64,000 nucleotides of DNA from Escherichia phage tootiki, in sequence record MN850647.1; one strand, 5' to 3'. The notes under the pieces were generated by a model, which had not been told where the DNA came from, made no database searches, and saw only the letters and a program-made list of their open reading frames with translations. Position numbers and translations under genes: made by a program. Positions 53,450-63,432 of the stretch are shown here, in pieces; within the stretch, counting starts at the first letter, position 1, and every line of letters begins with the position of its first letter.

Positions 53450-55086
53450 AATATCTTAAGAGCCTCCTTAATTGGGGGCTTTTTAATTTTTATAAAATTT
53501 TATCGGTTGTCCCAACCTCTGGGTCACCATCATATGTGAATAAAATATCTACCCTTCTTAACAACCTTCTTAATCTTACTCTCTATATAGTTATATAGTA
53601 CTATATAGTATCTTAGTAACTATCTAGTGGTCTTAATAGCCCTCTGTATAGCCCTTCTAAATAGCCTTCTAAACACTCTTCTAACAAGCCCTCTTAACCA
53701 CCTATACAATCACCTTAACCATCCCTCTACACCCTCTTAGAAGCTCCTATACACCTCTTAATCTCTAGGTTAGCTATGGCACTCTCTATAGGTGTTCACT
53801 AGGTAATACTAAGCCTCTATATAGACTGTTTTAACAAACTTAACAGGAATATCTTTACAGACCTTACCTCACAAGGTCTAACACGGTACTAACAAGGTAT
53901 CTTGTAAGCCTGTTTCTACCTGTATTTTTAAAAGACTGTATAGGTAATTATTCAGAATTTTAAAATTTTTATAAAATAGGACTATCAAGTCATTTTTTAG
54001 GGTCTTTGAAGGAACTGAAAAATATCTGTCTAGGATGTATATCTGCTTGGTAGCCCTTAACAGCTCCCTTACAAGTACTTTGCAAAATTTTAAAATATCC
54101 TTAACAATCTCTTAACAGTTCTCACATCTTCTTAACAACTCTTCAAAGGTCTTAACAGATTCTTAACAGAACTAACAAGGCTGTAACAGTTTCTTAACAG
54201 TTGATACATAATCTTTACAGAGGCTTAACAGATGACTAACAAGAGCTAACAAGTTAATTTTAAAGAGTTATTTTGTTAAGATTATTAACAAGTTTCTAAC
54301 AAGTCTTTAATCTTTTTAACAAGCTATTAACATGGTCACTATCTCTTTCTTATCGTTCCCTTTCCTTTCTTAGTGATTCTTTAAACATACCTCTTAAAAG
54401 CTCTCTATAGCTCTTTATAAGCTCTTTTAAGTCTCTTCCTAGTAGTTACACCCCAACTGTACAGATAGCTCTCTATAGGGCTTTACAGGAGCTTTTAAGG
54501 CTATGTCAAAGACTCTTACAAGGCTTTTACGTGGTCTTAACAGAGATTTAACAAGGGGCTAACAAGTTGCTAACAAGTGTCTTAAAAGCATAACTATGTA
54601 GGGATTGTTAAGAAATTGTTAAGAAAATGTTAAGGGGGCTAGTATTTACGTAACTTTTAAGCTACTTCAAAATAACTTTTAAGCTACTTCAAAATAACTT
54701 TATAGCCCCCTTCTTAGATATTCACAAGATAACTAATGAGATGATAAAGCTTACACCCTTATAAGATTCTTTTAAGGCTCTGGGAAGCTTTATAAAGGGC
54801 TTTTAATGGTGAGGTAATGCAATCCCTTAAGTTAGGTTAATAAGGTCGTTATAGGGCTTTATAGAGCGTTTAAATGGTTGCCCTTCCCTTTCGGGTTATG
54901 GGCTTATATTTAAGTTGATTTGATAAGGGGCTATAGAGTAAGCTATAGAGTTATTGTTTTTTAAGGTCTGATAAGATTCTGGAAAGGAAAGGGAAAGGGT
55001 TGTATAAGGGATTTGATAAGACGTAAAAAAGCCCCATATAAAGGGGCTGTAAAGGTATCTGGGGCTATTTAGCCCCGTTGCGGCGT
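53450..55086. repeat. 1.6-kb ORF-free region dense in short direct repeats (iteron-like)
   Basis: No ORF of 60 aa or more in any frame; many copies of CTTAACAG / CTAACAAG / TTAACAAG, CTATATAG and CTCTATAG motifs; tandem 22-bp repeat at about 54655-54700. Confidence 0.6.
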
Positions 55087-58245: not shown

Positions 58246-58331
58246 TTTTAAGTTCTCCAATTTAGGATTTAGTGGTAAAGCTCTTTATCTGGGGCTTACT
58301 TTATCGAACTATAAGCCCCTTGTAAAGTACT
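58246..58331 (-). promoter_or_regulatory. conserved promoter-leader module, class A
   Basis: Near-identical to the 57444, 59920 and 60299 modules. Confidence 0.5.
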
Positions 58332-58604
58332 TTATACTAAATGCAGCTTTTTACCTTTTACTATGATGTAACTCGATGCGCTATTGCTTTGCACATCCTG
58401 ATAAATTCTGCGCAAACGGCCTTCGTAGTATACTTTCCAACTGGTTGGAATCTTTTTCCCGTATCCTGTAGCAGTTTTTTGTAGTCCTGCAAGTTGCCAA
58501 TCTAAGATATGTTGTTCGGCTTGTAAATCCTCGAAGTGCATTACACCGTTCACATAGTGACGAAGGGTTATGTTTAAGGTGCGACCGTTGTTAGTAGTAT
58601 ACAT
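58332..58604 (-). CDS. hypothetical small protein
   Basis: 90-aa ORF. Confidence 0.5.
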   Translation of the reverse strand: MYTTNNGRTLNITLRHYVNGVMHFEDLQAEQHILDWQLAGLQKTATGYGKKIPTSWKVYYEGRLRRIYQDVQSNSASSYIIVKGKKLHLV

Positions 58605-60298: not shown

Positions 60299-60384
60299 TT
60301 TTAAGTTCTCCAATTTAGGATTTAGTGGTAAAGCTCTTTATCTGGGGCTTACTTTATCGAACTATAAGCCCCTTGTAAAGTACT
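60299..60384 (-). promoter_or_regulatory. conserved promoter-leader module, class A
   Basis: Near-identical to the 58246 module. Confidence 0.5.
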
Positions 60385-60591
60385 TTATTTATCGTAGTAG
60401 TAAATTGCTGTCTGTCTTGTAAACTTCTTAGTATTTCTTGTCAGATAGCAATTAGAATTAATAGCCGTTTCTACATAGTTGCAATAGTCAGCTTCTGATA
60501 TTCTAGACCATACGCCACAGATTTGCATGTAAAAACGTTTTACCTTTGTGTGAATGTTAGTTGTAACCATCAATTCGCGACTGTACAGCAT
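60385..60591 (-). CDS. hypothetical small protein
   Basis: 68-aa ORF following a leader variant. Confidence 0.45.
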   Translation of the reverse strand: MLYSRELMVTTNIHTKVKRFYMQICGVWSRISEADYCNYVETAINSNCYLTRNTKKFTRQTAIYYYDK

Positions 60592-60839
60592 TTTTAGATT
60601 CTCCAGTTTAGGAAGTGGGCTTGATTGCCCGTCTGATGCAGATATTAGATAACTATACTCAAAGAGTCAATAGGAATTTTAAAAATATTTTTTGCAAAAA
60701 TTGTAATGAAACGGGTGCGCGCGACTACCACAAAACAGAACTACAATCAAGAATTATTTTTCAATCCGCTACAAATTTTTCTGTTGACTTTTATTTCCAG
60801 ATGTGGTAGCCTTGTGAGAAATGGCGACATCCCCACCTG

Positions 60840-61040
60840 TACCCACCTACCTGCACAATTCTAAAATGATTTTTCTTGCCCGACCTGAGCGGGGTCTGCA
60901 CGTTTTGAAAATGAAAAAGCTCTTTGGAGATTACCTGCACAGTTTAAAAATGAATTTTCTCTTTGGAGTTCAAAATTCTCTCTACAGATTTCTCTACAGA
61001 ACTCTACCTGCACAAATCTGAAATGAAAAAGCCCTCCTTA
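60840..61040. promoter_or_regulatory. cluster of direct repeats upstream of the leftward small-gene array (candidate operator/promoter region)
   Basis: Three copies of TACCTGCACAnnTnTnAAATGA at 60848-60869, 60932-60953 and 61005-61026; repeated CTCTTTGGAG and AAATGAAAAAG. Confidence 0.5.
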
Positions 61041-61099
61041 CCTGAAAAATTTACCAGATAAGAAAGGCTTAGGCTATTGTGAATATCCTACAGAGTTTC

Positions 61100-61885
61100 T
61101 TAGTTCTTTGCGTCTAAGAAGGTAACTTCTGGTGAAGAGAAAACTGTCTCGATATCCTCATCAGTTCTTGCATAGATATAAGTATCTGCATCACTGCCAA
61201 ATGTTACTGCAATCCTGTGATTGCTCTTCGACAGGTGGGTAACTAGAGCGTTACTCAGAGACATCTTTTCAACCGGAGGGTTACTTTGATGTATCTTACC
61301 TTTTCTTCGTCTGAAGAGGGTAACTGCGTTATCTGTGAACACTGCTACACCTGCAAAGTATTCTGGTTCACAGTAGTTCTTCCAACCTGAGCGTAACTTG
61401 TGGTACATCTCTCCTTCGTAGACATAAAGATACACATCTACACTCTTCATCACCTGATTAATGATAACTGTGACGGCTTGAGGGTCTAGCCCACCGATAC
61501 CTGCACCAATCATAGGTAAACCAACCTTCTTCAACTGGTTGACTTCACAGTATCTGTTAAGCTGCTTCAAAGATGACTCTAAAGCACTGTATCGGGCATC
61601 TTTACCAGTCTTAAGCTGAGTGTAAAGGTTAGCTATACGGCCTTGTTCTAAACGTGCTACAGAGAAATTACCCAGTAAATTTTCACAGGGTTTGTGACCT
61701 ATACCACCTGCATAGAGGTAAACTTCTGTATCGGTCTCATATGCTTTTGGGTAAAGTTTAGAAATCTTGTCAGCGATACCTACACCCATTAAATTCATAC
61801 AGTTGCAACCGTGACCAATAATATCAAACTTACCTTTATCAAATGCTGAGAAGATATCCCCATTGATGATTTTTACAATACCCAT
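61100..61885 (-). CDS. macro-domain (ADP-ribose binding/processing) protein with C-terminal extension
   Basis: N-terminal IINGDIFSAFDKGKFDIIGHGCNCMNLMGVGIADKI matches the macro-domain pattern (GDIT ... DAIVNAAN ... GGGVAGAI) by eye. Confidence 0.55.
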   Translation of the reverse strand: MGIVKIINGDIFSAFDKGKFDIIGHGCNCMNLMGVGIADKISKLYPKAYETDTEVYLYAGGIGHKPCENLLGNFSVARLEQGRIANLYTQLKTGKDARYSALESSLKQLNRYCEVNQLKKVGLPMIGAGIGGLDPQAVTVIINQVMKSVDVYLYVYEGEMYHKLRSGWKNYCEPEYFAGVAVFTDNAVTLFRRRKGKIHQSNPPVEKMSLSNALVTHLSKSNHRIAVTFGSDADTYIYARTDEDIETVFSSPEVTFLDAKN

Positions 61886-63386: not shown

Positions 63387-63432
63387 TTAACAATCTCCTG
63401 AAATGAAAAAGGCTCCCGAAGGAGCCTGTGTA

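Follow-up and report, generated by a model that had tools for sequence, protein, structure and literature searches.

Four tandem bipartite repeats downstream of the macro-domain gene of Felix O1-like phages look like a protein-binding DNA array

In a stretch of 64,000 nucleotides from Escherichia phage tootiki (record MN850647.1; the whole stretch is called the window here) we found an array of four tandem units, all in the same orientation and each about 36 bp long. The array lies inside a 508-bp gap, poor in open reading frames (ORFs), which extends from a macro-domain gene (61100-61885) to a gene for a protein of 68 amino acids (60385-60591). The units follow each other at distances of 73, 39 and 45 bp, and to judge from their composition and their conservation they probably form a cis-acting, protein-binding DNA array. 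By its sequence the window is a Felixounavirus genome (a Felix O1-like myovirus of Escherichia/Salmonella). It carries the cluster of 24 transfer RNA (tRNA) genes that is typical of Felixounavirus, and the 1.1 kb surrounding the array match 229 phage records with 94-96% identity, nearly all of them Felixounavirus. The genes flanking the array are all on the minus strand, and the units are described in this direction.

Each unit is composed of an upstream box (T-N7-G), a five-base A/T run, the hexamer TCATTT, a spacer of seven bases, the pentamer GTGCA and usually GGT. The upstream boxes are ACTCCAAAGAG, GGTAAGGAGGG or GGTCGGGCAAG. Unit A (61006-61042, minus strand, core 61009-61026) reads GGTAAGGAGGG-CTTTT-TCATTT-CAGATTT-GTGCA-GGT and unit B (60933-60969, minus strand, core 60936-60953) reads ACTCCAAAGAG-AAAAT-TCATTT-TTAAACT-GTGCA-GGT. 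They are followed by unit C (60894-60930, minus strand, core 60897-60914), TCTCCAAAGAG-CTTTT-TCATTT-TCAAAAC-GTGCA-GAC, and unit D (60849-60885, minus strand, core 60852-60869), GGTCGGGCAAG-AAAAA-TCATTT-TAGAATT-GTGCA-GGT. The A/T run occupies one fixed position of the unit and is T5 in units A and C and A4-5 in units B and D. All units are asymmetric and contain no dyad. Within the window the strict core TCATTT-N7-GTGCA is found four times, always on the minus strand and between 60852 and 61026; for the whole window 0.11 copies are expected, and at most one copy was reached in 200 shuffles. In a near-identical genome no copy was found in the 23 kb lying outside the span of the window, and the complete genome of vB_EcoM_D4 contains exactly four copies at the homologous place and none elsewhere.

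A previous sequence-only reading of this DNA had described three direct repeats of a 22-bp motif, TACCTGCACAnnTnTnAAATGA. All three are real, as the motif is present on the plus strand at 60848, 60932 (with one mismatch) and 61005, and none of 100 dinucleotide-preserving shuffles reached three matches (mean 0.12). The count was too low, since a fourth, degenerate copy (CTGCACGTTTTGAAAATGA) is located at 60896-60914, and the repeats belong to the one longer unit of about 36 bp. The further repeated segments that had been listed are present too, CTCTTTGGAG at 60920-60929 and 60959-60968 and AAATGAAAAAG at 60909-60919 and 61021-61031, and the repeat finder shows both in register with the unit motif. 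The position had also been given correctly, between the macro-domain gene (61100-61885, minus strand) and the first promoter/leader module (60592-60670).

To what extent the array is kept in other phages can be seen from the relatives. A sensitive search found the gap in 288 phage records. In the loci compared a gap of 460-510 bp follows the macro gene in every genus, and the array is situated just downstream of this gene in every lineage examined. Number and order of the units are kept in Felixounavirus, Suspvirus and Mooglevirus, the identity of the gap being 71-73% for the latter two genera. Counted from the macro stop codon the units are found at +73/+146/+185/+230 in Felixounavirus versus +71/+146/+187/+232 in Suspvirus and Mooglevirus, and 27 relatives from IMG/VR carry four units at the same positions. 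In the Erwinia phages (Kolesnikvirus) just 67 bases of the gap still align by BLAST (query 213-279), and these correspond to units D and C. Kolesnikvirus has four units about 35-39 bp apart, one of them inside the interval that matches the 73-bp linker between units A and B of the window, and the units of these Erwinia phages are separate from the terminator tail. Compared with phiEa104 the window shows an identity of 32% in the macro protein and of 52-58% in the flanking DNA, the latter being near-random, and the unit cores are nearly identical. Five units lie 3' of a shorter macro gene in L207 (IMGVR_UViG_3300045988_063805), an 88-kb metagenomic relative with 40-60% protein identity.

Some further observations were made on the L207 contig, which is a circular assembly with an overlap of 55 bp. 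In the segment 463-1169 of this contig the macro gene encodes 148 amino acids without the C-terminal domain, and the units are arranged in two clusters, of the GTGCATAGG and GTGGATAGG types. Directly after them stands a small TTAACA-rich cluster like the one at the terminal repeat of the window, which is treated below. A scan of viral contigs with a single-unit pattern was too unspecific to be used, and the matches of a two-unit scan outside the Ounavirinae were coding repeats of the tail-fibre type.

The nucleotide diversity (pi) was computed over 17 distinct Felixounavirus sequences. It amounts to 0.014 for TCATTT, 0.006 for GTGCA, 0.006 for the A/T run and 0.015 for the upstream box, in comparison to 0.064 for the 7-nt spacer. 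In the macro gene pi is 0.137 at third and 0.019 at second codon positions. The diversity of the half-sites is thus 10-20 times below that of synonymous sites, and the spacer lies several-fold above the half-sites. These values indicate that the half-sites are constrained like second codon positions of a coding sequence, and they show that the half-sites are under purifying selection.

This constraint does not stem from a protein-coding gene. The plus-strand ORF at 60821-61021 was rejected as a gene because it shows no codon periodicity (pi 0.046/0.057/0.052 against 0.029/0.019/0.137 in the macro gene). It has 51-66 codons and is open in most Felixounavirus, and in L147, Suspvirus, Mooglevirus and the Erwinia phages its frame is changed or interrupted. 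In deposited genomes (JLBYU32, D4, LinBro and others) between one and three tiny 'hypothetical proteins' are called in the gap, for instance at 1752-1904 of L002 and 36926-37293 of L223. As the diversity pattern is without coding constraint, these calls are likely spurious, and annotators should be warned accordingly of the small ORFs often called here.

Signals of a structured RNA or of a promoter in each unit were not detected either. RNAalifold gave for nine diverse sequences a weak consensus of -13.95 kcal/mol with a covariation term of +0.24 and compensatory changes in 2 of 33 pairs. An Rfam search of the gap returned no match at E <= 1, and no tRNA, transfer-messenger RNA or known RNA family was found in the gap. 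The sigma-70 scan of 60849-61042 called no promoter, and by inspection no TAnnnT at the right spacing is shared by all units on either strand. A sigma-70, sigma-54 or extended -10 promoter in each unit was discarded, as neither the scan nor inspection revealed consistent hexamers. On duplex DNA A-runs and T-runs are equivalent narrow-minor-groove tracts, and in RNA they are very different. The exchange of A-runs and T-runs together with the missing coding, RNA and promoter signals makes the units look like recognition sites in duplex DNA. They look like two specific contacts about 12-13 bp apart, in addition to a read-out of the shape of the A/T tract.

The sequence-only reading had suggested an operator array for a repressor or activator of the leftward early genes. 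The protein-recognition part of this proposal is supported, given the invariant bipartite cores, the freer spacer, the exchange of A-run and T-run, the lack of coding or RNA signals and the subfamily-wide presence, and the array does lie upstream of the leftward early genes. The operator role itself fits less well. The nearest convincing promoter is 178 bp past the last unit, the DNA after this unit is hypervariable, the units have no dyad, the other early promoter modules do not contain the motif, and the array keeps its place relative to the 3' end and terminator of the macro operon and not relative to a promoter.

Along the minus strand the macro gene is followed by a terminator, units A to D, a hypervariable stretch, a conserved 60-bp block, an A/T-rich tract, a sigma-70-type promoter and a leader. 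The intrinsic terminator of the macro operon (61019-61070, minus strand) consists of a hairpin at 61029-61070 with a stem of 17 pairs and a subsequent T-tract, TTTCATTTCA. It is the t13 of Felix O1 (dG -21.8; Whichard 2010, Table 2), and a terminator is also annotated here in phage Barry. The T-tract of t13 doubles as the T-run/TCATTT half of unit A. The 5' arm of the hairpin varies by genus and the 3' arm, CAGGTAAGGAGGGC, is kept; loop and 3' arm together (61038-61053) look like a truncated extra unit.

As the best overall explanation we tentatively propose that the array is a set of tandem asymmetric bipartite sites for one sequence-specific DNA-binding protein with a transcriptional-boundary mechanism. 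Several copies of the protein would load side by side just past t13, where unit A overlaps the T-tract. The complex would mark the border between the long transcription unit from rIIA to the macro gene and the right-terminal block of small early genes of about 6 kb. It could act on transcription by strengthening or gating termination and read-through into the early block, or alternatively the promoters 120-180 bp downstream may be turned down or up as infection proceeds. Taken for itself the boundary role is possible, and we hold it a little more cautiously than the explanation as a whole. In its favour the array adjoins t13, shares its T-tract and has conserved promoter elements downstream.

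Several findings speak against this explanation. The promoter scan called a sole promoter, whose -35 element is at 60670 and thus 178 bp past the end of the last unit (60849), a distance which is large for a classical operator, and hypervariable DNA follows immediately behind this unit. The motif is missing from more than ten other early promoter modules, which would be odd for a general regulator of early genes. The spacing shifts by 2 bp between genera (73/75 and 39/41), and the allele of finno (L220) and phiWec177 (L221) has only three units at a spacing of 75/45, with a different unit A and no unit B. Finally, no transcript or binding data for any member of the Ounavirinae were found in the literature.

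The factor that reads the units is likely encoded by the phage, which is the simplest inference from two results. Firstly, the flank after GTGCA is GGT (GTGCAGGT) in the phages of coli, Salmonella, Shigella and Citrobacter and TAG (GTGCATAG) in the Erwinia phages and L207, so that the site co-varies with the phage lineage. Secondly, no similar DNA was found in 5,426 E. coli genomes or 72,556 plasmids. The two-unit pattern had no match among Enterobacterales in 185,579 species genomes; its multi-copy matches there were metagenome-assembled genomes, which were judged unrelated from their regular spacing alone. Mimicry of a host element, either a type III antitoxin or a cluster of host binding sites, was dismissed, as plasmids and E. 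coli genomes gave no counterpart and the species genomes only these unrelated matches. A single mismatch separates the Erwinia-type units (CTATGCACA or TTATGCACG), and one unit among the five of L207, from a DnaA box. In the window the units (ACCTGCACA) have mismatches to TTWTNCACA at 3 of the 8 specified positions, which rules out DnaA as the common ligand. By inspection against the consensus sequences no fit was seen to IHF, Fis, CRP, marbox, pho box, LexA, NarL or sigma-54 sites. No DNA-binding or Rep domains were detected in the genes next to the array. The only annotated candidate for a cognate regulator is an XRE-type helix-turn-helix gene tens of kb away. Proteins of this type normally bind dyad sites, and the units have no dyad.

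The strongest competitor of the boundary mechanism is an origin of replication. The units would then be iterons bound by a phage initiator, and the complex together with the A/T-rich promoter region would open the DNA or position a priming transcript for a T7-like replisome. With four cores within 175 bp the array comprises at least three unique direct repeats on the same strand, and such a genome-unique cluster of three to five repeats in one orientation, lying in the largest conserved non-coding gap besides the terminal-repeat region, is what iterons look like. The gap also has promoters and an A/T-rich tract (75-80% AT at 60640-60700), the phage encodes a T7-type primase/helicase and a polymerase and belongs to a family without a known origin, and the alternation of A-runs and T-runs at a unit spacing of about 3.5 turns would suit a wrapped nucleoprotein complex. 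However, neither the domains encoded in the flanks nor the D4 annotation reveal an adjacent or recognisable initiator gene, the least stable 40-mers of the gap reach only about the 99th percentile, and the A/T-rich tract is more than 150 bp away from the array. DnaA boxes are absent from the units of the window, and GC skew has no inflection here, though gene orientation dominates the skew. Furthermore, T7-type replisomes normally start from transcripts and not from iterons, which we count against this reading. An iteron origin is in our view unlikely. Both explanations fit the sequence about equally, and we slightly prefer the transcriptional boundary, since in every lineage the array keeps its tie to the terminator and the 3' end of the macro gene.

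A role at the RNA level appears doubtful. The repeats would in this case offer an RNA-binding protein or a nuclease several sites for binding or processing, including a decoy or sponge in the style of ToxI. As carrier transcript either read-through of t13 or an antisense RNA from a possible plus-strand promoter (TTGACT-17-TAGCCT, 60785-60813) could serve. In this allele a promoter-like site with an extended -10 indeed faces the array by inspection, which the scanner did not list, but its -10 is without the critical final T in most lineages, and the sense strand has a strong terminator ahead of the array. Units B, C and D follow one another almost head-to-tail (39 and 45 nt), which falls within the sizes of type III antitoxin repeats, and the array adjoins a likely counter-defence gene, the macro-domain gene. 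On the other hand, covariation, a stable consensus fold and an Rfam match at E <= 1 are all lacking, A-runs and U-runs are not equivalent in RNA, the spacing of 73/39/45 is unequal, and host genomes and plasmids contain no related repeats.

The array could furthermore be imagined as a checkpoint of DNA entry or gene expression comparable to the injection-stop signal (iss) of T5, which would tether or pause the genome at the inner limit of the early block on the right. About 7 kb of small host-takeover genes at the right end would enter and be expressed first, and the bound array would hold back the remainder, to be released by an early product. The array is about 6.2-7.0 kb from the right physical end; in D4, whose genome (89,439 bp) is complete and end-resolved, the distance to the right end is about 7.4-7.5 kb. 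With about 8% of the genome beyond it, the array borders on the inside a block of small early genes whose transcription runs toward the right end, and the Erwinia-type units come within one mismatch of a DnaA box. Yet it is outside the terminal repeat, unlike the iss, it does not have the paired inverted DnaA boxes of T5, and no report of a two-step injection was found for Felix O1-like phages or the Ounavirinae. We regard such a checkpoint as very improbable; if true, Felix O1-type myoviruses would be the second example of staged genome delivery, built independently of the first.

It is equally improbable that the units are functionless, decayed duplicates of a terminator tail kept by chance or hitch-hiking: CTTTTTCATTTCAG also ends the terminator at 63401-63430, unit A overlaps t13 and one natural allele is short of a unit, but the cores are invariant across genera whose flanking genes go down to 32% protein identity, the half-sites vary 10-20 times less than synonymous sites next to a several-fold more variable spacer, and the units of the Erwinia phages are not joined to a terminator tail.

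An identity of the array with the terminal repeat or a packaging (pac) site was ruled out by mapping. Felixounavirus genomes have short direct terminal repeats, namely 608 bp in UAB_Phi87 (Bal31 mapping and run-off sequencing) and, by PhageTerm, 581 bp in Pr103Blw and 613 bp in Ro111lw. The annotated 581-bp repeat of Pr103Blw maps to 54059-54639 of the window, in agreement with D4, and the array is 6.2 kb away from it. The genes on either side of the terminal repeat are transcribed toward it. The repeat sits in a stretch of 1.6 kb (53450-55065) without ORFs of at least 45 amino acids, and the least stable DNA of the window is located at the repeat. This stretch is crowded with YTAACAR heptamers, up to 15 per 300 bp, which is the sole such peak in the window, and inverted copies of the heptamer are found at its far edge (54596-54636). 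The YTAACAR cluster is a candidate recognition array for terminase or end processing.

The macro-domain gene (61100-61885, minus strand), which is the upstream neighbour of the array in every genus, encodes 261 amino acids and matches Pfam Macro (E=3e-7) and phrog_335 (E=1e-111). Records of relatives label it 'phosphatase' or 'O-acetyl-ADP-ribose deacetylase', and its C-terminal domain gave no fold match. The first small early gene past the gap (60385-60591, minus strand, start codon at 60591) encodes the 68-amino-acid protein, assigned to phrog_5293. The small proteins flanking the array had no Pfam matches.

Between the array and this start codon several further elements can be distinguished. 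The hypervariable linker (60790-60848) reaches a pi of 0.23-0.36 versus 0.137 at the third codon positions of the macro gene. It occurs as two unrelated-looking alleles, with G-runs on the minus strand here and C-runs in most relatives (G-quadruplex-like on the plus strand). When aligned to the L152 allele its reverse complement surpasses both the direct orientation and 300 shuffles, which hints that the alleles are related by inversion. In the adjoining non-coding block (60730-60789, AAAAGTCAACAGAAAAATTTGTAGCGGATTGAAAAATAATTCTTGATTG...) pi is 0 in four 10-nt bins (gap index 320-349 and 360-369). The block is nearly identical in Suspvirus and Mooglevirus and absent in the Erwinia phages, and its inverted AGTCAA/TTGAyT pair perhaps represents back-to-back -35 boxes, one directed toward the early genes and one toward the array. 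The A/T-rich, UP-like tract (60671-60705) precedes the sigma-70-type promoter (60642-60670, minus strand, TTGACT-17-TAATAT), which is kept in all genera and was assigned to the first gene of the terminal early block. Promoter and start codon are separated by a leader, which contains a small hairpin. Another promoter-like site, weaker and of poor -10, is located about 95 bp from the array.

Two elements inside the array are not shared widely. The long linker between units A and B contains a 12-bp tandem duplication (60979-61002, plus strand, TCTCTACAGATT / TCTCTACAGAAC), which is not kept outside Felixounavirus. Between units C and D there is a small GC hairpin (60878-60896), which is replaced by GAGAAAAATC or GATAAAAATC in L148, L158, L152 and finno. 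With a pi of 0.28 this stretch is the peak of diversity within the array, and since the hairpin is not conserved it is not part of the functional core.

In finno and phiWec177 a divergent macro gene and terminator allele is combined with units C and D and everything downstream of the standard type, which places a recombination joint inside the array. Contig ends near the array were seen in IMG/VR sample 3300045988. Of the contigs L137, L140, L141, L142 and L153, four of near-full length end 300-415 bp after the macro gene, in the variable part of the gap, and the remaining one about 1.4 kb after this gene. The sample holds more than a dozen related strains together, and because of this co-occurrence we read the contig ends as breaks of the assembly graph at a junction of conserved and variable DNA and not as physical ends. 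In addition, the records 'Campylobacter phage A132' (MG065664.1) and one 'Staphylococcus' phage are about 95% identical to the Felixounavirus region and are probably mislabelled or contaminated.

A second terminator at 63401-63430, the t5 of Felix O1, has the same CTTTTTCATTTCAG tail as t13 and unit A and is without the GTGCA half. From 55 to 60.6 kb a module of about 90 bp, a hairpin (GGGGCTTA...TAAGCCCC) followed by a Shine-Dalgarno sequence, recurs upstream of most of the small early genes, for example at 60299-60390 and 58261-58366. We take this module to resemble the promoter-stem-loop cassettes of T4-type phages that mediate gene shuffling. The Felix O1 paper had noted it in the form of 57-bp direct repeats.

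Among the classical typing phages of Salmonella are Felix O1 and its relatives, which are also frequent in cocktails for therapy and biocontrol. The array would be the most concrete handle found here on the replication origin or the timing of transcription in these phages, and as it is small and easily deleted or moved it is suited for a pull-down of its binder. The Felix O1 genome paper (Whichard 2010) reports t13 as well as twelve direct repeats, none of which is this array, and states that temporal regulation is not understood. The accessible text of the Bas63 essentiality study assigns the surrounding genes to a non-essential segment and gives no intergenic result for it. For Felix O1-like phages no papers dealing with transcriptomes, origins or iterons were found.

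Among known systems the array resembles type III antitoxin (ToxI-type) arrays and phage pseudo-ToxI in having short tandem units (36-45 nt) beside a probable counter-defence gene, but it differs in its unequal unit lengths, in the lack of a fold or covariation and of an Rfam match, and in having no host counterpart. With the T5 iss it has in common that conserved untranslated repeats bound a terminal early block, at 7.9% of the genome for the first-step-transfer segment of T5 and about 8% for the array, and that the early genes of this block are transcribed from host-type promoters. The iss is located within a 10-kb terminal repeat and consists of inverted repeats with paired DnaA boxes, whereas the array is outside the 581-bp repeat and purely direct. 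Like the O-binding repeats of the lambda origin, the iterons of P1, F and pSC101 and T4 oriE, the array has three to five direct repeats in one orientation, unique in the genome, whose core measures about 20 bp, and like iteron origins it is non-coding, with A/T-rich DNA and promoters nearby. It differs from these origins in that no initiator gene was recognised, the spacing of 73/39/45 is irregular and an unwinding element is not clearly marked; enterobacterial iteron origins usually also have DnaA boxes, which the array does not. The operators of P1 C1, the marbox of MarA/SoxS and the tandem sites of the OmpR/PhoB type are asymmetric or bipartite and are read by monomers or head-to-tail dimers. 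In contrast to these the array lies 180-370 bp from the nearest good promoter and forms one cluster per genome. Its units are likewise non-palindromic and likewise combine two short elements, separated by about one turn of the helix, with a non-specific spacer and an A/T tract. Undescribed in the literature found, the array would thus belong to a familiar class, that of tandem protein-binding repeats, with unusually clear comparative support.

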